Of a DNA stretch of 52,679 nt, positions 10,818 through 37,083 are shown in pieces. The position numbers were made by a program, and so were the translations under genes. This DNA comes from Candidatus Kaiserbacteria bacterium RIFCSPHIGHO2_02_FULL_55_25 (lineage in GTDB: Bacteria; Patescibacteriota; Minisyncoccia; Phycocordibacterales; UBA2100), in NCBI GenBank assembly GCA_001781335.1, contig MFLL01000010.1, positions 1 through 52,679 on the forward strand. Direction: 5' to 3'. The notes under the pieces were generated by a model. That model was not told the DNA's origin and ran no database searches. It saw only the letters and a list, made by a program, of their open reading frames with translations. Every line of letters begins with the position of its first letter. Position 1 is the stretch's first letter.

Positions 10818-12737
10818 ATGAACCTTACCGACCTTCTTCCGTTCAAGAAAAAAGCCGCCGCGGGGCCGGATATTTTGCCGGTACTACCCGAAGAAATCTA
10901 CCAGACGGGGGTACTCGACCTGCAGGACGTCATCGCACCGCATGCGCTCAAGGTAAATTCTCGCGAACTCGACTTGGGCGAGAAAATCGCGCGCACTTTC
11001 TTCGTCATTTCATACCCGCGCTTTCTCACCACGGGATGGTTCGCCCCCATCATCAACATGGACAAGGTCATCGACATTTCCATCTTCGTCCATCCGATGG
11101 ACACCAACGAAATGCTCCGTAAGTTCCAGAAAAAAGTCGCCGAGGTGCAGAGCCAAATCTCGACGCGCGAGCAGAAGGGGATGGTCCGTGACCCGATGCT
11201 CGATACCGCATACTCCGACCTCGAGCAGTTGCGCGACAGCCTCCAGCAGGCGCAGGAACGCATCTTCGACGTCGGACTCTACCTCACCATCTACGGCAAC
11301 ACGCGCGAAGAGATAGACAAGGTGGAGAGCGACGTGCGCTCCATTCTCGAATCGCGCCTCGTGTACATCCGCCCCGCACTCTTCCAGCAGGAACAGGGTT
11401 TCCGCTCCGTCCTCCCGCTGTGCACCGACGAGCTCGACGTGCACACAAAACTCAATTCCGCGCCGCTCTCATCCATCTTCCCGTTCATCTCGTTCGACCT
11501 CACCTCCGACCGCGGCATTCTCTACGGCATCAACCGTCACAATTCATCTCTTATTCTCTTCGACCGCTTCTCGCTCGAAAACTACAACTCCGTGACGTTT
11601 GCAAAATCCGGCGCCGGCAAAAGCTACACAACAAAACTTGAGATATTGCGCTCTCTCATGTTCGACACCGAGGTCATTGTCATCGACCCTGAGCGCGAAT
11701 ACGAATATCTCGCGGAGACCGTCGGCGGGCGCTACTTCAATATCTCCCTCTCCTCGGAGCACCACATTAATCCTTTTGACCTGCCCATCCCGCGCGAAGA
11801 TGAAAATCCGAGCGACGTGCTTCGCAACAACATCATCACGCTCGTCGGGCTCTTCCGCATCATGCTCGGCGGGCTCACGCCGGAGGAAGACGCCGTCATT
11901 GACAAGGCAATCACCGAAACCTACGCGCTCAAAGACATCACCTCGGATACGAATTTCGCACAGGTTGAGCCGCCGCTCCTCTCCGACTTCGAGCTCGTTC
12001 TATCCGGCATGGAGGGGAGCGAGTCGCTCGTGCAGCGTCTGTCCAAGTACACGAAGGGTACGTGGTCGGGATTCATGAACCGCCCGACGAACGTCGACAT
12101 GAATAAAAAGCTCGTCGTCTTCTCGGTGCGCGACATGGAAGACGACCTCAAACCGGTCGCGATGTACATAATCACGCACCACATCTGGAATCAGGTGCGC
12201 AAAGAGCTCCGCAAGCGCCTACTCGTCATCGACGAAGCCTGGTGGATGATGCGCTCCGAAGACACCGCGTCGTTCCTTTTCTCCATCGCAAAACGCGGCC
12301 GCAAATACTACCTTGGTATCTCGACCATCACACAGGACGTGTCCGACTTCCTGAACTCCCCGTACGGCATTCCTATGATAACCAACTCGTCCATTCAGCT
12401 CCTGCTACGCCAATCACCGACCTCCGTCGACCTCGTACAAAGCACGTTCAAGCTCTCCGACGAAGAGAAGTACCTTCTGCTCGAGAGCGACGTGGGGGAG
12501 GGTATCTTCTTTGCCGGTCTAAAACACGTTGCGCTCAAAGTCATCGCCTCATATACGGAAGATCAGATCATTACCTCGGACCCGTCGCAAATTCTCGCAA
12601 TCAAAAAGGCGAAACAGGAGCTCGACGCGTCGAATGACGCGCCCCGGCCCGTTGCCATGCCCGCCGCGCACGCACCGGGCACCGACACCGCACCAGCGCC
12701 GCAGGCTCCGTCCAGTAACGCCCTACGGGAGGTATGA
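10818..12737 (+). CDS. virB4: VirB4/TrsE-family T4SS ATPase
   Basis: Walker A FAKSGAGKSYT, Walker B RLLVIDEAWWMM, and ISTITQD... motifs. YPRFLTTGWFAPII...IDISIFVHP region typical of VirB4. Confidence 0.85.
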   Translation: MNLTDLLPFKKKAAAGPDILPVLPEEIYQTGVLDLQDVIAPHALKVNSRELDLGEKIARTFFVISYPRFLTTGWFAPIINMDKVIDISIFVHPMDTNEMLRKFQKKVAEVQSQISTREQKGMVRDPMLDTAYSDLEQLRDSLQQAQERIFDVGLYLTIYGNTREEIDKVESDVRSILESRLVYIRPALFQQEQGFRSVLPLCTDELDVHTKLNSAPLSSIFPFISFDLTSDRGILYGINRHNSSLILFDRFSLENYNSVTFAKSGAGKSYTTKLEILRSLMFDTEVIVIDPEREYEYLAETVGGRYFNISLSSEHHINPFDLPIPREDENPSDVLRNNIITLVGLFRIMLGGLTPEEDAVIDKAITETYALKDITSDTNFAQVEPPLLSDFELVLSGMEGSESLVQRLSKYTKGTWSGFMNRPTNVDMNKKLVVFSVRDMEDDLKPVAMYIITHHIWNQVRKELRKRLLVIDEAWWMMRSEDTASFLFSIAKRGRKYYLGISTITQDVSDFLNSPYGIPMITNSSIQLLLRQSPTSVDLVQSTFKLSDEEKYLLLESDVGEGIFFAGLKHVALKVIASYTEDQIITSDPSQILAIKKAKQELDASNDAPRPVAMPAAHAPGTDTAPAPQAPSSNALREV

Positions 12738-17832: not shown

Positions 17833-19182
17833 ATGACGACGAACAGGGAACTATGGCAGCATGCGCTCGTTCAGATCGAGTTGGGAACATCGCAAGCATC
17901 GTTCCGCACGTGGTTCCGGAATACCGATATCGCCTCTCGCGACATCGGCACCGTACAGGTGGCTGTCCCGTCAAAAATCGTGAAAGAGTGGCTCATGGAG
18001 AAACACCACAAGCTCATCCTCAAGGCGCTCCGCGGTCTCGACAACACAGTCCGCACTGTTGAGTATGTGGTTCACCGCACCCCTCCCTCCGCCGAACGCA
18101 AGGTGCCACGGCCCCAGCCGTCGGGAAACGCCTCTCTCGACCTCCAGTCGCTCTATATAGACAAGCGTGACAACTTAAACCCGCGCTACACATTCGAAAC
18201 GTTCGTCGTGGGACCGTTCAACCAGCTCGCGCATGCCGCTGCGAAAGCGGTGCTCGAGCGTCCGGGTCTCGCATACAATCCGCTTTTCATCTACGGACAA
18301 ACGGGTCACGGGAAGACACACCTCATACAGGCGGTGGGAAACTACTTCAAGAAGTCACACGCGAACAAGAAAGTGCTGTACGTCACCTCGGAACGCTTTG
18401 CCGTCGACTACATCAATTCGGTGCGCGCGGGCCGCGCCAACAGCTTCAAAGACCAGTACCGGCAGTATGACGTTCTCATCATGGACGACGTACAGTTCAT
18501 CGCGAACACTGAAAAAACGCAGGAGGAGCTGTTCCACCTGTTCAACGCGCTGCACGACAACAACAAACAGATTGTATTCTCCTCCGACAAACACCCGACG
18601 CTACTTCCCGGGTTCGAAGACAGGCTCAAGGGACGTTTCTCGGCCGGCATGATAGCGGAGATACCGGAACCGGACGTGGAGTCGAGAATAGCCATAATTA
18701 AAGCCAAGATTGAGCAACACGGCTTCTCGCTTCCGGACGACATAATCCAGTACATTGCGGAGAATGTGCGCGGTAATATCCGCGAACTCGAAGGCGCGCT
18801 CAATATGATTGTCTGCAAATCACAACTCAAAGGGAAAGCGATATCACACGCCGACGTCCGCGCGCTTATCAAACACAACGTGAAGCCCAACAGGGGTGTC
18901 TCCGTCGACGAAGTGGTACGAAGAATCGCGCAGTACTACGAGATACCGGAGAAGAGCATCTACGAGAAAACACGCAAGAAGGAGGTGGTGAAGCCGCGGC
19001 AGATTATTATGTACATGCTACGCGAAGAGTTCAGTGTCTCGTACCCGTCGATAGGGGAGAAGCTCGGTGGACGCGACCATACGACCGTCATCCACTCATG
19101 CGAAAAAATAAAAGAGGAGTTGAAAATGAACAATTCGCTCGAACAGGAAATCGACCACATCCGCACACTCATCCACGCATAA
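17833..19182 (+). CDS. dnaA: chromosomal replication initiator protein DnaA
   Basis: AAA+ core YNPLFIYGQTGHGKTHL, VLIMDDVQF. C-terminal DNA-binding domain HTTVIHSCEKI. Confidence 0.97.
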   Translation: MTTNRELWQHALVQIELGTSQASFRTWFRNTDIASRDIGTVQVAVPSKIVKEWLMEKHHKLILKALRGLDNTVRTVEYVVHRTPPSAERKVPRPQPSGNASLDLQSLYIDKRDNLNPRYTFETFVVGPFNQLAHAAAKAVLERPGLAYNPLFIYGQTGHGKTHLIQAVGNYFKKSHANKKVLYVTSERFAVDYINSVRAGRANSFKDQYRQYDVLIMDDVQFIANTEKTQEELFHLFNALHDNNKQIVFSSDKHPTLLPGFEDRLKGRFSAGMIAEIPEPDVESRIAIIKAKIEQHGFSLPDDIIQYIAENVRGNIRELEGALNMIVCKSQLKGKAISHADVRALIKHNVKPNRGVSVDEVVRRIAQYYEIPEKSIYEKTRKKEVVKPRQIIMYMLREEFSVSYPSIGEKLGGRDHTTVIHSCEKIKEELKMNNSLEQEIDHIRTLIHA

Positions 19183-19428
19183 TCGAAATCTCTCTCCAAT
19201 AACCCTGTGGACAAACTCTATATAAATCACCCACAACACCCCGAACAACATCATGATAACTTCACCAAACACCGGCCTGGCAGAATTATCCCCTTTCTCT
19301 GCACATTTCACACACCAGTTCTCAACATTTCAAAATACCCAAATCACTAACCAATATCTCACTTAAATTCACTTCTCCCCACTATCCCCAGTACTAATAG
19401 AAGTAATAGTATTTAAATAAGAAAAAGT
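19183..19428. other. candidate oriC (dnaA-dnaN intergenic region)
   Basis: Markedly AT-rich compared with its flanks. DnaA-box-like 9-mers: TTGTCCACA (reverse strand, 19206-19214), TTATCCCCT (19286-19294), TTCTCCCCA-CTATCCCCA (19373-19390). AT-rich stretch at 19391-19428. Confidence 0.5.
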
Positions 19429-20526
19429 ATGAAGATAACAACAACAAAAGAAAAAATCCTAAATACGATTCTCATGGCGGAAAGGGTTACGGGGAAAAAA
19501 GAATCTCTCCCGATACTTGCTTGTATTCTTATCGAAGTAACAAAAGATATTATTCTCCGCGCAACAAATCTTGAGGCGGGTTTCGAGGCCACCATACCGG
19601 GCGAGGTTTCCGAGGAGGGAATTATCGCGGTGCCGGCGGCAATCCTCTCGCAAACAATACGCTCAATCGGCGGGGATAAGGTCACTTTTTCCACCGACGA
19701 CTCCAATCTCCTCGTGGAGTCACGAGGCACCAAGACACTCATAAAGGCGATTTCTCATGACGAGTTTCCTGCGCTGCCGAAAAGCGCGGGGAAGAATAAA
19801 ATATCTCTTTCACGAGAGAGACTTGTTCGCGGGGTACAGGCGGTCTCATACGCGGCCTCGCCGTCAATGATTCGTCCGGACCTCGGCTCCGTGTACCTCT
19901 CGATTAAGGACGGGGCGATGGTTTGTGTCGCGACGGATTCGTTCCGACTGGCCGAGAAGACAGTCTCCGAGAACGGTACCAAAGCCGAGGGTGACGTACT
20001 TATCCCGCTGAAGCACGCACTCGAGCTTGTCCATATCCTCGAGCATGTCACCGATGATTCGGTGTCGCTTGCCGCCGAGGAATCTCAACTTGCGGTTTCG
20101 GCCGGTGGTATGCGGTACGTATCTCGAGTGGTAGATGCCACATTCCCGAACTACAAAGAGATAATTCCGAAGAAGTTCACGACCGAGGCGACAGTACTCA
20201 AAGGTGACCTGACCGAGATGTTGCGCAAGGCGCGTGTGTTTGCCGGCGCCGACATGCACGTGGGTCTCCACATTTACCCGAAGAAGAAAATATTTTCCGC
20301 ACTTGCGCGCAGTTCTGATGTCGGGGAAATGTCCGACTCCATCGACGCGGCACTCTCCGGCGAGGACCTCGACATCAATTTCCATATCGGCTACATCGCC
20401 GATTGTTTGTCATCCATCGAGTCCGACTCCGTCACGCTCGGTTTTGCCGGCACCGGCAAACCGCTTGTCATCCGCGGCGTTTCCGACTCTTCTTTCTTGT
20501 ATCTCGTAATGCCGCTGAACCGGTAA
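19429..20526 (+). CDS. dnaN: DNA polymerase III beta sliding clamp
   Basis: 365 aa, three-domain clamp pattern (...LRATNLE..., ...VATDSFRLA..., ...MPLNR end). Position after dnaA. Confidence 0.93.
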   Translation: MKITTTKEKILNTILMAERVTGKKESLPILACILIEVTKDIILRATNLEAGFEATIPGEVSEEGIIAVPAAILSQTIRSIGGDKVTFSTDDSNLLVESRGTKTLIKAISHDEFPALPKSAGKNKISLSRERLVRGVQAVSYAASPSMIRPDLGSVYLSIKDGAMVCVATDSFRLAEKTVSENGTKAEGDVLIPLKHALELVHILEHVTDDSVSLAAEESQLAVSAGGMRYVSRVVDATFPNYKEIIPKKFTTEATVLKGDLTEMLRKARVFAGADMHVGLHIYPKKKIFSALARSSDVGEMSDSIDAALSGEDLDINFHIGYIADCLSSIESDSVTLGFAGTGKPLVIRGVSDSSFLYLVMPLNR

Positions 20527-26929: not shown

Positions 26930-27463
26930 CTAGGCGGCGTTGGTGTAGACGTTTTCCACATCGTCATGCGCGTCGATTTTTTCGAGAACTTCCATGAGCT
27001 TCGCACTATCTGTGTCGGAGAGCGGTACGGTCGTCTTGGGCACGTAGCCCTCCTCGATACTTTTTTCAAATGCCCACATGGCCGAGCCCGGCGCGGCGAG
27101 TGTGAGACCGTTTTCAGTAAGTAAGTGTTTTATTTCCTGCGCCGTTCTGTTGCGGCTATCAGTGAGTGCTTCAATGAGAATGGCCGCGCCACCCGGCCCG
27201 TATGTTTCGTAGGTGATTGATTCGAGCGATGCCGCATCGGCCGAAATGCCTTTTGCGACGGCGCGCTCGATAGTGTCTTTGGGCATGTTGGTTTTCTTGG
27301 CGGTCTCGATGATGGCGCGAAGTCCGGGAAGGGTGATGTCTCCGCCGGCTTTCTTGCTCTCTACTGCGATGCGCCGCCCGAGTTTGCCCCAGAGATTGCT
27401 CTTGGCCGCGTCGGCCGCACCTTTCTGTCGTTTGATTTGCGCCCATTTGTTGTGACCTGACAT
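26930..27463 (-). CDS. yebC: YebC/PmpR-family protein, short (177 aa) variant
   Basis: MSGHNKWAQIKRQKGAADAAKS...YETYGPGGAAILIEALTDSRNRTAQEIK...DDVENVYTN. Confidence 0.88.
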   Translation of the reverse strand: MSGHNKWAQIKRQKGAADAAKSNLWGKLGRRIAVESKKAGGDITLPGLRAIIETAKKTNMPKDTIERAVAKGISADAASLESITYETYGPGGAAILIEALTDSRNRTAQEIKHLLTENGLTLAAPGSAMWAFEKSIEEGYVPKTTVPLSDTDSAKLMEVLEKIDAHDDVENVYTNAA

Positions 27464-29131: not shown

Positions 29132-29518
29132 TTACTGCGCGGGCGCGGGTTGTTTCAGTAGTTTCATATAGAGCACGGTCGCAACGGGGCTGAAAAAGAC
29201 GATCGCATACGCAATCCATACATATGATGTGAGGAAGGGACCGAATCCCGCGGTCGGGGCCACGTACAGCGCGTCGAGCAGTGCGTGCAGACTCACCCAT
29301 CCCGCACCGCACAGAAGCGCTGTTTGGGGCGAGACGATATCGAGCGCGCGCGTCGCGGCGGCGATTGCGATACCCGTCACGACGTAGCTTGCAATCTGGG
29401 CGCCCCAGCCGTAGTTCATGCCGTACGCGGCAAGCAGTGACCACAGCATGAAGATAGTGGCGTAGGCGAAGAAGCCGTACAATAGAAAGCGAGTATACGA
29501 AACCCCCTGCATATGCAA
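29132..29518 (-). CDS. small 4-TM membrane protein, paralogue of 31785..32165
   Basis: Shared pattern FMLWSL..YG..YG..AQ..SYVVT with the second copy. Four hydrophobic helices. Confidence 0.7.
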   Translation of the reverse strand: MHMQGVSYTRFLLYGFFAYATIFMLWSLLAAYGMNYGWGAQIASYVVTGIAIAAATRALDIVSPQTALLCGAGWVSLHALLDALYVAPTAGFGPFLTSYVWIAYAIVFFSPVATVLYMKLLKQPAPAQ

Positions 29519-29542
29519 ATTCTACCACCCAATCAGTAGTAT

Positions 29543-31792
29543 ATGTCGTTTCAAGAATCTTCGCGCTGGGTACTCGTCGCCGTTTTTCTCGTAGCGGGAC
29601 AATGGGCGCTCTCTTTCCCCGTGCAACAACAGCCGTCCGCGCTCTTGGCGCAAGCGGCGAAACCCGTAGTTTGTCAGGACAAGAAAGGAGCGGTAACCGT
29701 CGAAGAAGAGTGTAAGCCGGGTTGTGAATATTTGGTGCGGCCGAGCTATACCAAGCAGGAGTCCGTGGATGTCCTCGCGTCGGTCTCGGACCCCACGGGC
29801 AAACTGCCCGGCACGGTGAAGTACAGAGACGGCAAGGGAACCATCATAATGATTTGCGACGGGACGGTGGGAAAGTCGCTCGAAAATCATACGGGAGCTC
29901 TACAGTCGGGAACGCCTCTTCAGCCGCAAGGGCAACTTCTTCCATCCGGCCCGACAGCGACGCTTCTTCCGTCGGGTCAGACGGGTCAAATCGACTCCGC
30001 CTTCTCGGGCTCCGGTGGATATACGCCGACTCCGCTTGAATATCGAGAATCAGTTCCGAGTGATTTTTTCGGCGTGAAGCCATCGGGCTCGCTCGGAGCC
30101 GCGCCCAATCCCGCCGTGAGTTTCGACGGCTTCCTCGGGGGGAACTACTGTCTCGGGCAGTTTTGTCCCGTAGAAGGAGAGGGAGTTCAACGGAACTCCG
30201 ATGCGTTGCCGAATGACGGAAACCTGAATGGGAATACGTTTGGAAACGTCGCCGAAATAAATTCCTCTCGCATTCCGCAAAACGTCGGCATAGAAAACGC
30301 GCTCATCGCGGACAGGGCGCGCCTCAACATGTCCAACGACTTGAGAATATATTCCGCCGCGCAGGAGTGGAGCGGCTTTCAGCAGAGCGGACGGTTGGAT
30401 GAACCGTTGTACGTAGGCGTCGACGGTGAGCGTACGGTCGCGCAATCAATCAATGCGGCCGTCCGCGACTATGCACAGCAGGACGTCGGCTATGCCGTAG
30501 CGGAGGTGACCGGAGAAACCGCCGTGGGCGAGCAGGGTGTGCTTATTTCGTACACAAAAGACGCAGTGCTCGCGCGCGACCCGTACGACGGCTCACTTTT
30601 GTTCGCTGATGCCAAAGACCAGTTACCGGTTCTCTACACCGCAGACGGACAGGCGGTGCCGACATCAAATCAGTCCGGAGAGTGGTTGGGGGTGATGAAG
30701 GAGAGAATTCAGACTCCGGCGGAGTTGCGGGAATTTGAGAGGGCATATACTGGAACCTATTCGGCGGTATTTACGCCCGCTGATATCAAGGTTCCCGGAT
30801 TGAAACTCGATATGTTACCCGACGATGTGAGGAATACGTTCGACAGTCTCGCGAGATGGGACGGCAATGGTCCGGAGTCGATGGGTGCATCCAATGACGT
30901 GATAATACGCAGCTTAGACGGTGAGGAAAAGTTGCGGATATCGGACGATGTATACCGTGCGATGCAAGCGCACGAGAACGAGGTGTATGGAATTGATGCG
31001 GCCGCGCATCGTATCGAGCGCGACACGCAAGGCAAAATGAGTTTGGACATTTCCAGTCTTCCACACGAGACAAATGTCGGGGGCTTGCTTGCTCCCGAAT
31101 ACGCGCTCGTGCCGCTGCCCGGCGAACTACGGGCGTGGACGGCAGGCGCTATTGAAACCGAGCTGGGCAAATATCCGCCGGAGTATTGGGAAAACGCAAA
31201 CAAAGGCGCGATATACGACTATATGCCGCGTCCCGATATGCAGGGTGTGGTACGGGAGGGCGGACATGCGACCCTTCCCGGGGACCCGAAGGCGCATATT
31301 TATCTCAATGGCTTAAATACCGGTGCCGGTGTTGCAGTAATCCTTAACCACGAACTTGCGCACTACAACAATGACAAGACTTTTGTGTCGGACGAGATAT
31401 TCGGTACCCGTGTGTACGGGCCCGCATACGGGATGTCGTACGCGGGCTCCAGCGGGTACGAAGCCATCACGTCGGGGAAGTTTGACATTGGCCGTCCGGA
31501 TGGATTCACCGCCAGTTACGGCTATCGCGGCGGCGTGCAGGAAGATAAAGCGAGCATCGCGGAAGCCATGTTCACCAATTATTCTGTCGTTCAGCAGGCG
31601 ATGCAGACGGACCCCATTCTTGCGCACAAAGTTCAGCTTCTCCAAAGCGGGTTTGAAAAAAGTACGAACGGCGTCATGAATGAGGCCTACTGGCAGAACT
31701 TGAGACCGATTGACCCGTGGTATCAGCTCCCGCCTGCAGTGTCGAGACCGAGCTTCTTGCGAACACTCATATCGAAGCTGTGGTTTAGATAA
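29543..31792 (+). CDS. large secreted protein with C-terminal HExxH (HELAH) metallopeptidase-like module, paralogue of 32180..34519
   Basis: Signal/TM WVLVAVFLVAGQWALS. HELAH at nt 31349-31363. N-terminal LLAQAAKP...GTVKYR and C-terminal YPPEYW...EAYWQNLRP are shared with the paralogue. Confidence 0.7.
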   Translation: MSFQESSRWVLVAVFLVAGQWALSFPVQQQPSALLAQAAKPVVCQDKKGAVTVEEECKPGCEYLVRPSYTKQESVDVLASVSDPTGKLPGTVKYRDGKGTIIMICDGTVGKSLENHTGALQSGTPLQPQGQLLPSGPTATLLPSGQTGQIDSAFSGSGGYTPTPLEYRESVPSDFFGVKPSGSLGAAPNPAVSFDGFLGGNYCLGQFCPVEGEGVQRNSDALPNDGNLNGNTFGNVAEINSSRIPQNVGIENALIADRARLNMSNDLRIYSAAQEWSGFQQSGRLDEPLYVGVDGERTVAQSINAAVRDYAQQDVGYAVAEVTGETAVGEQGVLISYTKDAVLARDPYDGSLLFADAKDQLPVLYTADGQAVPTSNQSGEWLGVMKERIQTPAELREFERAYTGTYSAVFTPADIKVPGLKLDMLPDDVRNTFDSLARWDGNGPESMGASNDVIIRSLDGEEKLRISDDVYRAMQAHENEVYGIDAAAHRIERDTQGKMSLDISSLPHETNVGGLLAPEYALVPLPGELRAWTAGAIETELGKYPPEYWENANKGAIYDYMPRPDMQGVVREGGHATLPGDPKAHIYLNGLNTGAGVAVILNHELAHYNNDKTFVSDEIFGTRVYGPAYGMSYAGSSGYEAITSGKFDIGRPDGFTASYGYRGGVQEDKASIAEAMFTNYSVVQQAMQTDPILAHKVQLLQSGFEKSTNGVMNEAYWQNLRPIDPWYQLPPAVSRPSFLRTLISKLWFR

Positions 31793-32165
31793 CGTGCCTC
31801 GGCGCAATCAGCTCCGTAGCCGCCGTCACAATAATCGGCGCAAGAAGAATGATGCCGTAACTGATGAAATTGAATGACGTGAGCAGAGATTCAAATCCGG
31901 CGACGGGGACGACGAACACGACGTCGAGCACGATATACACGAGAGTCCAACACACTCCGTACATCCATGCGTTTGCGTTTGTCGCGCCGACAAATCTCGT
32001 CGCAAAGAATGTCGCGAGCGCGGTTACCACATAACTCACGAGTTGCGCGTTTATCCCGTACGCCGCACCATACGTCGTCATCAAAGACCACAACATAAAT
32101 ACACTCGCGTAGATAATAAATCCCGTAGCTATTAAATATTTGTAGTTGACCCGCATACCATCCAA
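31785..32165 (-). CDS. small 4-TM membrane protein, paralogue of 29132..29518
   Basis: See 29132..29518. The 3' end overlaps the end of the upstream large gene by 8 nt (convergent). Confidence 0.7.
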   Translation of the reverse strand: MDGMRVNYKYLIATGFIIYASVFMLWSLMTTYGAAYGINAQLVSYVVTALATFFATRFVGATNANAWMYGVCWTLVYIVLDVVFVVPVAGFESLLTSFNFISYGIILLAPIIVTAATELIAPRHVI

Positions 32166-32179
32166 TATACCATTGCCTC

Positions 32180-34519
32180 ATGAAGCGCCCCGGGTCGGGA
32201 GGGACATCTGCAATTTTTCTTGCCGCATCGGCGATGCTTTTCATCTCCGGTGCCGTGCTTCTTACCCATCCGCCCGCACCGGTATCGGGGTCCGACCCGG
32301 CGCGACTCGTAGCGCAAGCAGCCGCACCGTCGGGTTCATCGAGCATGATAACGAAAGGTGTCCTCGAGTCACCCTGCGAGAACGGTTACGTGTATGAAAT
32401 TCAAACCGCACCCAAGGATTCCAAGGAACCGTTCGTGATAAAGCGGTCGCTCAATCCCGACGACCCGGACAAACGATGGTCCGGCACCGTGAAGTACAGG
32501 AGACCGCCGACGACACCCGGCGGTAAGGCGACCATCATCACTCTGGCGTGCAGGGATAAGGTTGCCGACATGATAAAGCTAACGCGAGATGTCACAAATC
32601 TCGGATCAGGACCGAAGTTGTCGTACAGCGATTTTGCCGTCGATTTCCCGATGGACCCGAGAAACACCGACCAGCTGACCTCGGTATTCACGCCACCGGC
32701 CAAAGACTCAAATACAGCCGTCGCTCCCGCCGGTAGCGGCGATAAGATTCCGGTCGTTGCAGGGGAACTACCTCCTGCTGGGCAGGCCGTACCACCCGCG
32801 AATAGCGAATTGTATGACCGGAACAATCAGGCCACCATCAATCCGTCTAAAGACCCCTTGGAATCCTCGTCTGAATGCCCGACGTGCGGAACAGGGGAGA
32901 AAAATGCGCAAAGGACACCCGCTCCGGCCGGCTTACCCTCTCCGGAATACGTAGCCGGTCTCAACAGTCGCATTTCCGGTGTCGCGACAGCCGCTCTCGA
33001 GAAAAACTCCGACGTTGTGGCTCTTGGCGGCGCGGATGTCGTCAAGGTGTGCGTCGCCGCACAAAATTGCCACGAGGTGACACCGAAGACCAAGGGGATC
33101 GAATCTTTTTTCGCGACCGGTGACGATATCAACGGGAAGTACTCGAAAATCGTTACCGACGCGACCTACACCGCCATCAAGAGTCAGGCTGGACTTGGAC
33201 TCGTTGACCGGCCGAATCAGGACATTACGCGCGCGCGGACCGACACCTCCGTCGCCGGCGGCGATATGTGGAAGAAGGGAGATTCTACCGGCGGGTGGCA
33301 GGCGCTCACGTTCAACAACCGCGATCCGGACCGTCCTCTGTTGATGTGGACGAACAACATGTTGCCGACCGACAAGACGGCATCCGATATCGTGGTGTTC
33401 AAAGGTGATGGTACCGGTGTCCCCGTCCGGACGAACGGCGAGCTGGTAAATCCGGGCGGATTCGTATCACAGTTAGAAGACAGATTTACGACACCGAAAA
33501 CGTACGACACGCTGTTCTCGGCCGTGGTCGGGACCAACAAATCGGAAAGTGACCGCGCCAATTTCAAATTGGCGGACCCTGCCTCACCCATTGGCGAGAG
33601 GACAGTCACGGTTGTCAACAACGACCGCACTTCGCTCGCGACACTTCCCGAACAGGCGTACAGCGCACTTCAGAATTGGGGTGACAAAGTGTACAAGAAC
33701 GATTTTCAGGGCCAACTCAAACTGGCATCGGCCGACAAGTTGTCGTTTGCCCCATCCGATGCGTTTCCCAAAGACATCGGATTCGACCAGAGGTTCGCGC
33801 CCGCTGCCGGGCTGACACCGCTTACACCGGACAGACGATATGAAAAGCAGGAAGCATTGTTGACCGCCGCCCAACGGTATACACCCGAGTACTGGGCAAG
33901 CCTCCGCGAACCTGCGGTGATTGCAGACTTCGGTAAAATTCCAAATGACGATCGGGTAAAAGCGGGAGCGTACACCTACCTTCAGCCCGGCAACCAAATT
34001 GTTTGGATAAACGGAAACTACAAAACCGAGTGGCTCGCTCAATCCTTTAACCATGAGACCCTGCATTTGGTGGAGGGGCTCAGGAGAAATAATCGTTTTT
34101 ATCCGACGGACAGTGACTGGGGAAACGCGATGTTTGGTGAGCAGTACGGAAAGGTATATGCAACGGAATCTGGAGTATCCTCTATTGCTTCGGCCGGAGG
34201 ATATGTCAACTGTACCGAATATGACCGGCCCGAGGGGTTTCCTTCGTGCTACGCGTATAGCGGCGGCCCCATGGAACACAAGGCCGAAATGCAGATGCTC
34301 ATCATGGGAAATTACAATCTCGCCTATCAGGAAGCGCAGAAAAATCCTTTTTTTAAAAAAGGATTTGACCTCATCATGCAGAGCCTATTCAAGGCGTCGA
34401 GTGGAACGATGACGGAGGAGTATCTGGCGTCACTGCGGCCCACTCTCACGTATACCGCGCTTCCAAAAATCAATATTCCGTTGACGACAAGGATTTTCAT
34501 GGGCATCAACAGGAGGTAG
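32180..34519 (+). CDS. large secreted protein with HExxH (HETLH) module, paralogue of 29543..31792
   Basis: TM AIFLAASAMLFISGAVLL. HETLH at nt 34052-34066. Shared LVAQAAAP, GTVKYR, YTPEYW, EEYLASLRP blocks. Confidence 0.7.
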   Translation: MKRPGSGGTSAIFLAASAMLFISGAVLLTHPPAPVSGSDPARLVAQAAAPSGSSSMITKGVLESPCENGYVYEIQTAPKDSKEPFVIKRSLNPDDPDKRWSGTVKYRRPPTTPGGKATIITLACRDKVADMIKLTRDVTNLGSGPKLSYSDFAVDFPMDPRNTDQLTSVFTPPAKDSNTAVAPAGSGDKIPVVAGELPPAGQAVPPANSELYDRNNQATINPSKDPLESSSECPTCGTGEKNAQRTPAPAGLPSPEYVAGLNSRISGVATAALEKNSDVVALGGADVVKVCVAAQNCHEVTPKTKGIESFFATGDDINGKYSKIVTDATYTAIKSQAGLGLVDRPNQDITRARTDTSVAGGDMWKKGDSTGGWQALTFNNRDPDRPLLMWTNNMLPTDKTASDIVVFKGDGTGVPVRTNGELVNPGGFVSQLEDRFTTPKTYDTLFSAVVGTNKSESDRANFKLADPASPIGERTVTVVNNDRTSLATLPEQAYSALQNWGDKVYKNDFQGQLKLASADKLSFAPSDAFPKDIGFDQRFAPAAGLTPLTPDRRYEKQEALLTAAQRYTPEYWASLREPAVIADFGKIPNDDRVKAGAYTYLQPGNQIVWINGNYKTEWLAQSFNHETLHLVEGLRRNNRFYPTDSDWGNAMFGEQYGKVYATESGVSSIASAGGYVNCTEYDRPEGFPSCYAYSGGPMEHKAEMQMLIMGNYNLAYQEAQKNPFFKKGFDLIMQSLFKASSGTMTEEYLASLRPTLTYTALPKINIPLTTRIFMGINRR

Positions 34520-34596: not shown

Positions 34597-37083
34597 ATGA
34601 CCCGCCGGCAGATGGTCGGACTGACACTTGTGTGTGTTGCGGTATTTGTGACCGGCACTTTTGCAAGCGCAGCGACAACCCCGGACAACTCAAACACATG
34701 CCCCGCATACGGCAAGACCGCGAAGGGTGTCGAGAAACGTCCGTGCCGGCCGGGCAGTACACACAAAATAACTTTCGGTGTCGGCGGAAAGTACACACCG
34801 GCGGTCGGCGTACAGTCACGATGCCTGACGCAGGACCAAGAAGCGCAGTACGTCAAAGACCGTGGTGCCACCTGTACGGTGGAGTACTGCACACCGGCTC
34901 AAGACGGCAAAGAGAAGTGCACAAAGAAAACAGTCAAGATTGACCTCAACAAAACGGACCCATATGGCGGAGTTTCCCCGTTCTCGCAACAAGCACAGGC
35001 CGACAGCGCGCGGTTGGCCGCATACTCGGCGATGAACGATACGGCCGCCGCGTACCGCGCGGGTAATATGGCAAAGGTCCAGGAGATTGCAAATCAGACC
35101 AAGGCCAATCCCGAGGTCAGTGCCCTCATCAACAGCGCGTTTTCAAACATCAAGTCCCCGGCTGCCGGAGGGGGTGCAGTAGGTACTTTGAGTGACGAAG
35201 CGAAACTGCAAGCAGTCATCGCAAGTCTTGACCCTCAAAAGTCCGGCACCGCACAACCTCCGAAAGATGTGGTCACCCCGAAGAGCGATACTATTGCCGC
35301 GGACGTTACGGTCGAGAAAGCTCCCAAAGACAACGCGAACATGCCGTGTCCTGCCGGCGCAGCTTGCGACACACAGGGGAAGACCGCCACTCCGGCGTCG
35401 ACATTCTCGCCCGCGACCGAAGCAAACAAAAAAACCGCCACACAGCCGGCCCAGCCAACTTCATGGTGGGGCTCGGTCACCAACAAAGTGAGCGACTACC
35501 TGCCCGCCTCCGTCAACCGCTGGCTTGGCCTCGCCAATCCTCCCGACTTCCGGCCGTACGACCCCGCTACCGACGTGCCGCTTTTGGTGAAAGAAAACGA
35601 CTCGGCCTCGTTGAAAGACAAGTTGCATTTAGACCCGTTCGACACACAAAGTCCCGTTGTGCTCATGAACAAAGACGTCAGTGTCAGTAGCGGCGAGACC
35701 GCATTGCAAGCGATGACAAAGAGACAATCACAAGCCGTGCAGACCGCGGACATTGACCCCGATACACCCGTTCCTTCCGGCGGCATTGTGGTCACGCCGC
35801 TCGATGCAAGTGGTAAACCGAATCTCGGCGCGTCACAAGTAATGGAAGCGGGCACGTGGAGAGATTTTCTCAACGAGGTAAATGGCAACGACAAGTACAA
35901 CAACACCGTGATATCGGTGAATATACCGAGTTCGGAGCAGAAGACGGAGACTCCGGCGGGGGCGGATGTCACCCTGTCTTCGTTTGAAGACCTACCGGCA
36001 TCGGTGAAAGAGGTGTTCCAAAAACAGGATGCTCCGAACAAGCTAGCTCCACCACAGGTGGCCGACAACCCTCCGCCGGGCACAGAAAGTCCGACGTTGG
36101 CCAACAACACTCCGGCAGGGAGTCCACAGAACGAGAGTCCGAAAGAATCTCCGGCACCACCGGCTCCGCAGCCTCCCACGCCCACTGTGGAGCAATCATC
36201 GCCGCCGGTGCCCACGCCATTGCCGGAACCGACGATGCTCCCGCCGGCTCCACCTGAAAAGGAAGAACAACCGCCGGATCCGCCCAAAGAGCCGCCGAAA
36301 CCGGAAGAACCGAAGCCGGAAGAAAAACCGGTAGAACCGCCCGTGCCTGTTCTTTCCTCGCCGACCAAGTCAGCAGAATCCGTACCCACGCCACTGCCTG
36401 AGCCGGAGCTGAAGGACAAACTTCCCACACCAGAATCGACCACCCAATCGAGCAAGGAAGAGATTGAAGACTGCAAGGGCAATATCGACTGCAGGCTTCG
36501 AGATATCAGAAAATGGTTGGATGATTTAGAGCGCCCGAAAGAGCCTCCCAAAGAATCTTCGTTGACCACGCCATCATCGCCGTCGTCACTGAGTAGTCTA
36601 TCCAGCTCACACCCACGATATGTTCCGGGCGAATCCAGCGAGAGTTTCCAAAAGAGGGTTGATGCGTGGTGGGAGCAATCGAGCAATCAGTCATTAGAGG
36701 ATTTTATTAACAGTCGAGGTGGTCAGGTGGGTCAATGCGAAAGCTGTCATAACCCTCAGATGGGCGGAGGTGCCGGCCCGACGACGGACTATAAGGGAAT
36801 CGGCATCAGAATACAGTACGAAAGAAAGGAAGTTGACGGCAAGGCCCTCCCGGGCGGAATGATTCTCAGTGTGTTTCCCAATACTCCGGCGGAGCAGGCG
36901 GGACTGCGGGCGGGAGACTTCTTGCTGACTCTTGACGGAGGGAAAACCTCCATGATCTCCGGGATTAAGGGGGAGCCCGGCACGTCGATCAAGGTCAGGT
37001 ATTTACCACAAGGTGCAACGACACCGAAGACGGTAACGGTCACGCGGGCCATCATTATGTGTAGCGTCTACGGGTGTCCGTAG
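34597..37083 (+). CDS. surface protein: signal/TM, Cys-containing N-domain, long Pro-rich spacer, C-terminal PDZ domain
   Basis: MVGLTLVCVAVFVTGTFASA. PPAPQPPTPT...PPKEPPKPEEPKPEEKPVEPPVP tract (nt ~36040-36440). PDZ-like GMILSVFPNTPAEQAGLRAGDFLLTLDG (nt ~36800-37040). Confidence 0.7.
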   Translation: MTRRQMVGLTLVCVAVFVTGTFASAATTPDNSNTCPAYGKTAKGVEKRPCRPGSTHKITFGVGGKYTPAVGVQSRCLTQDQEAQYVKDRGATCTVEYCTPAQDGKEKCTKKTVKIDLNKTDPYGGVSPFSQQAQADSARLAAYSAMNDTAAAYRAGNMAKVQEIANQTKANPEVSALINSAFSNIKSPAAGGGAVGTLSDEAKLQAVIASLDPQKSGTAQPPKDVVTPKSDTIAADVTVEKAPKDNANMPCPAGAACDTQGKTATPASTFSPATEANKKTATQPAQPTSWWGSVTNKVSDYLPASVNRWLGLANPPDFRPYDPATDVPLLVKENDSASLKDKLHLDPFDTQSPVVLMNKDVSVSSGETALQAMTKRQSQAVQTADIDPDTPVPSGGIVVTPLDASGKPNLGASQVMEAGTWRDFLNEVNGNDKYNNTVISVNIPSSEQKTETPAGADVTLSSFEDLPASVKEVFQKQDAPNKLAPPQVADNPPPGTESPTLANNTPAGSPQNESPKESPAPPAPQPPTPTVEQSSPPVPTPLPEPTMLPPAPPEKEEQPPDPPKEPPKPEEPKPEEKPVEPPVPVLSSPTKSAESVPTPLPEPELKDKLPTPESTTQSSKEEIEDCKGNIDCRLRDIRKWLDDLERPKEPPKESSLTTPSSPSSLSSLSSSHPRYVPGESSESFQKRVDAWWEQSSNQSLEDFINSRGGQVGQCESCHNPQMGGGAGPTTDYKGIGIRIQYERKEVDGKALPGGMILSVFPNTPAEQAGLRAGDFLLTLDGGKTSMISGIKGEPGTSIKVRYLPQGATTPKTVTVTRAIIMCSVYGCP

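Follow-up and report, generated by a model that had tools for sequence, protein, structure and literature searches.

Introduction

Much of bacterial diversity belongs to the Patescibacteria, whose surface proteins for the most part lack an assigned function. What, then, do two 'hypothetical proteins' of some 750 residues do that lie side by side on a contig of Candidatus Kaiserbacteria bacterium RIFCSPHIGHO2_02_FULL_55_25, each next to a gene for a small membrane protein? The contig (MFLL01000010.1) was analysed over its whole length of 52,679 nt, referred to here as the window, and the four genes occupy positions 29132–34519. A preliminary description of this DNA had interpreted them as a tandemly duplicated, divergently transcribed module, in which a secreted, metalloprotease-like effector is coupled to a membrane partner. 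We report that the C-terminal domain of both large proteins is a predicted zinc metallohydrolase of the Glu-zincin type, most likely a peptidase, and that the small gene accompanies the large one wherever a locus of the full architecture could be read. The interpretation we favour, at roughly even odds, is that of an exported Glu-zincin and a dedicated membrane partner acting together at the outer face of the membrane. The genes are:

29132–29518, minus strand: small partner gene a, 128 aa from a TTG start, defined by the list of open reading frames (ORFs), paralogy and orthologue alignments
29543–31792, plus strand: large gene A, 749 aa, with a hydrophobic N-terminus, a small Cys-containing domain, a paralogue-specific centre and a C-terminal zincin module
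31785–32165, minus strand: small partner gene b, 126 aa from a TTG start
32180–34519, plus strand: large gene B, 779 aa, built like A and the more diverged of the two paralogues

Results

The C-terminal module of the large proteins is a predicted Glu-zincin

The preliminary description had pointed to a shared C-terminal stretch of about 230 residues with an HExxH motif and a downstream acidic segment. This module, now delimited to about 235 residues and zincin-like by both its motifs and an AlphaFold2 model, contains the following elements, with the two HExxH motifs located exactly where they had been reported:

31085–31789, plus strand: zincin module of A (residues 515–749), from the AlphaFold2 model, conservation table and profile links
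31349–31363, plus strand: HELAH of A (residues 603–607), two predicted zinc-binding His and the catalytic Glu, within predicted helix 596–608
31541–31546, plus strand: E667–D668 of A, candidate third zinc ligand within the motif GG.xED.A, where predicted helix 665–689 begins
33785–34516, plus strand: zincin module of B (residues 536–779), from motif positions and the conservation table
34052–34066, plus strand: HETLH of B (residues 625–629), from the motif position
34271–34285, plus strand: MEHKA of B (residues 698–702), with E699 at 34274–34276

In A the module is preceded by a conserved helical lead-in that begins near residue 457 (nt 30911). The acidic segment reads QEDKA in A (residues 666–670), and B carries His where Asp usually follows the Glu, changing ED to EH.

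Word-based homology searches with the large proteins returned close relatives only. A HMMER search of 1.84 billion representatives with a profile of the C-terminal module (A2) found 170 relatives at E ≤ 1e-3 and 23 at E ≤ 1e-30. HExxH is invariant in the 126 modules that were aligned (126/126), the downstream Glu corresponding to E667 of A is kept in 124 and replaced by Asp in the remaining two, the following Asp (D668) is likewise kept in 124, and Y659 of the GFxxYG motif in 125 of 126. Conserved along with these are KYP, GG, a Trp, GFxxYG, ED.A(T), DPxLxxK and SxGxM..YW. The acidic segment singled out earlier contains the candidate third zinc ligand, E667 in A and E699 in B. The module is also embedded in giant proteins of 2,900–6,300 aa (P0047, P0054, P0055 and P0086), one of which, P0047, has a second, unrelated putative zinc peptidase domain (PF04228).

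A first AlphaFold2 model of the A module, built from seven sequences, was too poor to use, with a predicted local distance difference test score (pLDDT) of 48. The model from an 87-sequence alignment reached a pLDDT of 91.9 and a predicted template modelling score (pTM) of 0.89. It places a backing helix (527–541) before three strands (556–562, 574–576 and 585–589) and the HExxH helix (596–608), followed by a helical subdomain whose long helix, 665–689, starts at E667–D668. This order of elements is the Glu-zincin layout as described in PMC3890501.

The same conservation bears on whether the module is an enzyme at all. HExxH could in principle mark a pseudo-peptidase, or a domain that cleaves bonds other than peptide bonds, with the pair serving as a surface device for adhesion or recognition. 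Several observations fit: the wider superfamily has no demonstrated peptidase activity, its model TIGR04549 is named only 'metallohydrolase', and a few distant relatives have a degenerate motif (HHQLFH in P0157, HHDMFH in P0166 and HELIGH in P0049) and are candidate pseudo-enzymes by sequence. The only mention of LIC13305, a member of the superfamily, in the literature searched is as a candidate surface protein of 31 kDa, produced in recombinant form (PMC7683387). However, the motif is intact in A and B as in every aligned module, and the near-complete conservation of HExxH, the downstream Glu and Tyr659 is what would be expected of an active site under selection. Active-site catalysis is favoured on this ground, and we regard a non-catalytic or non-peptidase module as quite unlikely.

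The module is a remote branch of the Peptidase_Mx1/LIC13305 superfamily

Single-sequence and shallow-profile searches of Pfam, NCBIfam and PDB gave nothing usable for the large proteins; a deep profile alone worked. Among 87 relatives, 78 match NCBIfam NF047804 (LIC13305 family lipoprotein; best E 1.1e-29), while Pfam PF15890 (Peptidase_Mx1) and TIGR04549 are each matched by 18. The best single-model match of module A itself is to NF047804 (E 1.2e-5, 24.9 bits, profile positions 80–249 of 274); B has no NF047804 match, and neither A nor B matches PF15890 even at E ≤ 1, or TIGR04549.

The deep profile (A4) matches PDB entries 4l7a (E 5.5e-14) and 9urd (E 9.4e-9), both of which belong to PF15890. 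A profile restricted to the partner-bearing class from the candidate phyla radiation (CPR) also recovers 4l7a, by hmmsearch with E 5.4e-4 at PDB size and by hhalign with a probability of 95.6%, and the alignment pairs HExxH, GF..Y and ED.A. On these profile comparisons the large module is a remote branch of the uncharacterised Peptidase_Mx1/LIC13305 superfamily. Peptidase_Mx1 is probably MEROPS provisional family M93, and 4l7a probably the BACCAC_01431 protein. Neither family of the pair had been recognised before; for the large protein this no longer applies, whereas the small protein still has no credible match in Pfam or NCBIfam (see below).

The large proteins carry a putative export segment

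The N-terminus of A contains its sole hydrophobic segment:

29567–29623, plus strand: hydrophobic segment of A (residues 9–27), by hydropathy

B likewise has a single such segment, at residues 11–29. In A it may be a Sec signal peptide or an N-terminal anchor. The AQAA of A (29648–29659, within LLAQAA) follows the segment and recurs in homologues, as part of a conserved LxAQA motif found 8–16 residues past the hydrophobic segment in the large proteins. This motif is a possible AxA signal-peptidase site, from which cleavage might be expected, and the B orthologue P0007 has a canonical VSA|E site. No lipobox follows the hydrophobic segment in A or B. Near the N-terminus lies a small domain with two Cys, weakly common to other members of the class, and between it and the module each protein has a paralogue-specific central region of about 350 aa.

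The small protein has four predicted transmembrane helices with an outward conserved face

The small protein had been described as having four transmembrane (TM) segments, and its four hydropathy peaks, centred near residues 23, 50, 77 and 108, agree. All of its Lys and Arg residues are confined to the N-terminus, loop 2 and the C-terminus; together with hydropathy, this points to an N-in/C-in topology. Over 17 homologues, L25, W26, Y32, G37, Q41, S44, Y45, T48, W74, D82, P88, A90, G91, T97 and Y104 are invariant or nearly so. Given the predicted topology, these residues map to both loops on the outside and to the outward halves of the helices; the polar set among them (W26, Y32, Q41, S44, Y45, T48, D82, T97 and Y104) lines the outer half of the bundle and the outside loops. 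An internal 2+2 duplication of the helices was considered and rejected (hhalign probability 4%).

Searching 5.8 billion clusters with a profile recovered just 19 of this family, every named one of them from Patescibacteria. In Pfam the best hits (Cation_ATPase_C and YdjM, E 0.014–0.044, in two of 17 members) are far below cut-offs, and NCBIfam gave nothing better than E 0.095. PADLOC-DB 2.0 gave no match at E ≤ 0.1 for the six proteins of the locus. Neither the small family nor its obligate pairing appears to have been described before.

Small membrane proteins act as release factors for some large exoproteins, and a holin-like or insertase-like role for the small protein in exporting or releasing the large one would account for their strict co-occurrence and co-duplication. 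However, the large proteins already have an ordinary N-terminal hydrophobic export signal, with the VSA|E site of P0007 as a canonical case. The small protein also has no highly charged C-terminal tail of the kind usual in holins, and its conserved residues point to the outside and do not line a pore. Because an ordinary signal sequence is present, this explanation is weakened, and we consider it very unlikely.

The small and large genes are paired across genomes

That the small gene adjoins the large one outside this genome was a prediction of the preliminary description that held in every case: a homologue of the small gene stands head-to-head with a large gene in all 13 distinct loci examined, the count comprising those loci of the full-architecture class that could be read. 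These are the window, L001 and L002 (two pairs each), together with L003, L004/L005, L007, L008, L009, L010, L013, L014 and L015. In L004/L005 the large gene runs off the end of the contig and is recognisable as an A homologue at E 2e-19. At least five genomic contexts are represented, namely yebC–ruvB, mreC–pbp2, ribosomal protein L19, PRPP synthase and an OmpA-domain gene, and the differing neighbours imply that the pair travels as a unit. A scan of a genome collection with two back-translated patterns was too specific and returned two loci only.

Identity matrices of module and partner are closely correlated (r = 0.92, Mantel p = 2e-4, 12 pairs); the two families co-diverge. The A/a pair is 35–48% identical to single-copy loci and occurs as a single copy in many genomes, and the B/b pair is 22–28% identical to family members outside B. 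A/a is the canonical pair, and B/b a fast-diverged or older copy. In a more distant class (P0060; loci L011 and L012) the module is present, and the N-terminal hydrophobic segment and the partner are both missing. The amphipathic C-terminal tail was tried as a strict correlate of the partner and rejected, P0051 having a partner and no tail.

The adjacency could also be devoid of functional meaning, the small gene encoding an unrelated, lineage-specific membrane protein. A scan of the locus for promoters and terminators, with counts not above shuffled expectation, is in keeping with this. Against it, the pair is the sole constant neighbour relation across these contexts, was duplicated as a unit, and consists of two families that co-diverge; we find a meaningless adjacency barely credible.

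As a separate observation, in L007 (2528–7624), from a metagenome-assembled genome (MAG) labelled Saccharibacteria, the pair lies between a putative mreC and a gene for a PBP2-like transpeptidase, as judged from translations only. The slot between mreC and a PBP2-like gene usually holds mreD. The small gene of L007 is on the opposite strand and gave no MreD match.

The duplicated pairs are under purifying selection

The reading of the locus as a tandem duplication of a divergent two-gene module is upheld, with all four ORFs where they had been placed and both pairs head-to-head. With the longest ORFs the intergenic gaps are 24 nt (a–A) and 14 nt (b–B). By comparison with homologues translation of gene a probably starts at the ATG at 29512, for a product of 126 aa like that of the orthologues, and translation of gene b probably at the ATG at 32156, for one of 123 aa, the length of its homologue P0010; with these orthologue-type starts the gaps become about 30 and 23 nt. 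The paralogy recorded earlier for both sets of proteins is sound: a and b share 40% identity over 112 aa (E 1e-20), and A and B 23% end to end (E 6e-29), with PEYW, AQAA and TVKYR in both.

At the DNA level, the sole trace of the duplication is a patch of 18 out of 19 identical nucleotides encoding GTVKYR. This patch (29808–29826 and 32481–32499) could reflect codon-level conservation or micro gene conversion.

The stops of genes A and b overlap by 8 nt (31785–31792), an arrangement that leaves no space for a terminator between them and is kept in L001 (9585–9592) and L002 (4395–4402), hence in three genomes.

In L001 the genes follow in the order small, large, small, large (126, 749, 130 and 786 aa), then one for an 838-aa protein and ruvB, the B protein of L001 being 61% identical to that of the window, and L002 also has the two-pair layout; the duplication is therefore older than the separation of these genomes. 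We compared the window genes with their L001 and L002 orthologues by the Nei–Gojobori method, calculating the ratio of nonsynonymous to synonymous substitution rates (dN/dS) overall and in 60-codon windows. It is 0.17 for A, 0.14–0.16 for B, 0.23–0.24 for a and 0.34–0.43 for b, and exceeds 1 in no 60-codon window. All four are real genes under purifying selection. Since the arrangement recurs in other genomes and selection acts on all four genes, it is not a chance one.

Of the earlier remark that the central 400 or so residues are divergent, one half stands: the centre does differ between A and B, but it is not hypervariable. Orthologues are well conserved here (codons 361–420 of A are 97% identical to those of L001 and L002), and diversifying selection in the central region was rejected, with dN/dS of about 0.15–0.18 and the absence of any window above 1. 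The centre of the large proteins is specialised, not hypervariable.

The B orthologues are mosaic. Between the window (32180–34519) and L002 (1716–3989), codons 361–480 are 93–97% identical, and most other 60-codon windows 45–82% (up to 87%), which suggests recombination within the gene.

These results bear most directly on the possibility of an effector–immunity pair, in which the zincin would be a weapon against hosts or competitors, the small protein would protect the producer, and the paralogues would form a diversified arsenal. Immunity to envelope-acting toxins such as the pore-forming colicins, whose immunity genes lie on the opposite strand, is typically conferred by small polytopic membrane proteins, and Patescibacteria are often episymbionts. 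The two tandem cassettes, the divergent and possibly targeting centres, the co-diverged partners and the small polytopic partner itself would all suit such a system. On the other side, the yebC–ruvB position is kept across genomes that are just 35–85% identical, purifying selection is uniform, A/a is a single copy in many genomes in the manner of a lineage core gene, and the 19 clusters of the small protein include no orphan copy that we saw. Markers of secretion systems, mobile elements and PADLOC systems are absent beside the pair. The genes are head-to-head, not in the usual operon of toxin followed by immunity gene; compared with polymorphic toxin–immunity systems, the small gene is not co-directional and downstream, dN/dS is 0.14–0.18, and the position is syntenic among housekeeping genes. 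Conserved synteny, purifying selection, the lack of orphan copies and the orientation make the immunity explanation the weaker one, and we judge it improbable. The word 'effector' used in the preliminary description is not supported by the synteny and selection.

Genomic setting of the locus

Upstream of the locus lie dnaA, dnaN, the gene for a class A penicillin-binding protein (PBP), ruvC and a short yebC, and downstream ruvB, the gene for a PilB-like ATPase and polA. The YebC/TACO1-family gene (26930–27463, minus strand) encodes only 177 aa, similar to the 176–200 aa in related genomes. The cumulative GC skew has its minimum at about 18–20 kb, coinciding with dnaA and dnaN (17833–20526), and the window probably spans the replication origin. 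Between 2496 and 15000, large ORFs without a Pfam match surround a gene for a TraG/VirB4-like P-loop ATPase (10818–12737); this block is possibly a cluster of the type IV secretion-like or conjugation-like kind.

The gene that immediately follows the two pairs, at 34597–37083 (plus strand), encodes a protein of 828 aa. It has a hydrophobic segment at the N-terminus, 15 Cys, a long low-complexity stretch rich in Pro, Glu and Lys, and a C-terminal PDZ domain. The PDZ domain is similar to the PDZ domains of S41 (C-terminal processing) and HtrA proteases, and no protease domain was detected. Its place is kept in L001 (838 aa) and L002. It was considered as a third paralogue of A and B and rejected (E 0.5).

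The closest named relatives are MAGs designated 'Patescibacteria group bacterium', and the closest relative loci lie on contigs named Hain_. The locus was detected in DNA metagenomes of groundwater, soil and sediment only.

Discussion

We postulate that the large protein would be exported by Sec, and that its C-terminal Glu-zincin could then hydrolyse an extracytoplasmic substrate picked by the central region. The four-helix protein, at the outer face of the cytoplasmic membrane, may dock, position or regulate the exported enzyme, and the divergent central regions would give the two paralogous enzymes different targets. Export, metal binding, catalysis, a physical interaction and the role of the partner are all put forward here as what sequence and model suggest.

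A more specific form of this proposal is a tentative one that we think doubtful: the two proteins would form an obligate two-part surface machine that belongs to Patescibacteria alone. The outward polar pocket of the partner (invariant D82 with Tyr, Ser, Thr and Gln residues) would capture or gate the enzyme, for example through the conserved juxtamembrane LxAQA segment or the amphipathic, mostly basic C-terminal tail, and the centres would recognise different host or envelope targets. Were this so, it would represent a previously undescribed way to tether and control an extracytoplasmic metallopeptidase, possibly in an episymbiotic lifestyle.

Several points weigh against the proposed exported zincin with a membrane partner. 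Both A and B fall below every curated family cut-off, the 24.9 bits of module A against NF047804 comparing with an equivalog cut-off of 250 bits. The zincin fold, for which a check by structure and profile comparison had been suggested, finds backing in the profile matches to 4l7a and 9urd but not in Foldseek: there was no significant neighbour in PDB (best E 0.16, TM-scores ≤ 0.37) or in BFVD (best E 0.016), and 4l7a is absent among the 50 PDB matches listed. The weak PDB matches are enriched in zincins, including 2ejq, 3e11, IrrE/PprI, lethal factor, M32, M61 and snapalysin, and those in BFVD look much the same. A demonstrated activity was not found in the literature for LIC13305, Peptidase_Mx1 or TIGR04549. 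As regards the partner, the outside loops are only about 8–10 residues long, a small docking surface for a 750-aa protein, and head-to-head gaps of 14–30 nt are too short for a normal shared promoter region, so that co-regulation is unproven. No RNA run contains the locus.

With these points in view, the analysis recasts two 'hypothetical proteins' of 750 aa as predicted Glu-zincin hydrolases, names their catalytic residues and ties them to a family that has crystal structures. It also defines a new family of small membrane proteins whose sole constant genomic neighbour is this enzyme. The locus offers a compact two-protein system with a natural specificity control, a–A against b–B, for asking how reduced cells process their own envelope or host proteins. 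Only if the role of the partner proves unusual would it amount to a new kind of biology, and nothing in it contradicts current understanding.

Comparison with known systems

An organisational parallel to the pair is found in the immunity genes of pore-forming colicins (cai, cei), which also encode a small membrane protein of three to four helices on the opposite strand, adjoining the gene for a large exported protein. Those systems are convergent and plasmid-borne and have a pore-forming toxin, whereas the present pair is head-to-head, chromosomal and syntenic, with a predicted zincin.

As an enzyme, A resembles the Glu-zincins (MEROPS subclan MA(E)), which include thermolysin (M4), anthrax lethal factor (M34) and minimal Glu-zincins, in having, in the model, the HExxH helix after a small β-sheet and a backing helix, and a conserved Glu on a later helix, 64 residues past the first His. 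In A a conserved Tyr (Y659) stands 8 residues ahead of this candidate ligand, a spacing reminiscent of Tyr728/Glu735 in lethal factor. Unlike in Glu-zincins generally, the spacing and the C-terminal helical subdomain are family-specific. MEROPS counts M93, represented by the BACCAC_01431 protein of Bacteroides, among the Glu-zincins (PMC3890501).

With PF15890 (putative zinc-binding metallo-peptidase) and its equivalent TIGR04549 ('substrate import-associated zinc metallohydrolase lipoprotein'), A and B share HHExxH, GF..Y, ED.A and the D..L..K helix in the same order, as well as an extracytoplasmic location, which for A and B is predicted. PF15890 proteins are lipoproteins of about 270–330 aa; A and B, by contrast, are multi-domain proteins of about 750 aa with the module at the C-terminus, have no lipobox, and are flanked by yebC, ruvB, the PDZ protein and the small TM gene instead of SusC/SusD genes. 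They differ in the same way from the Leptospira lipoproteins of NF047804, in that the large proteins of the window are not lipoproteins. Further features that set A and B apart from PF15890 are an added N-terminal part with KYP..GG, a PIDP..Y..LPP segment, an amphipathic C-terminal tail and a dedicated four-helix membrane partner.

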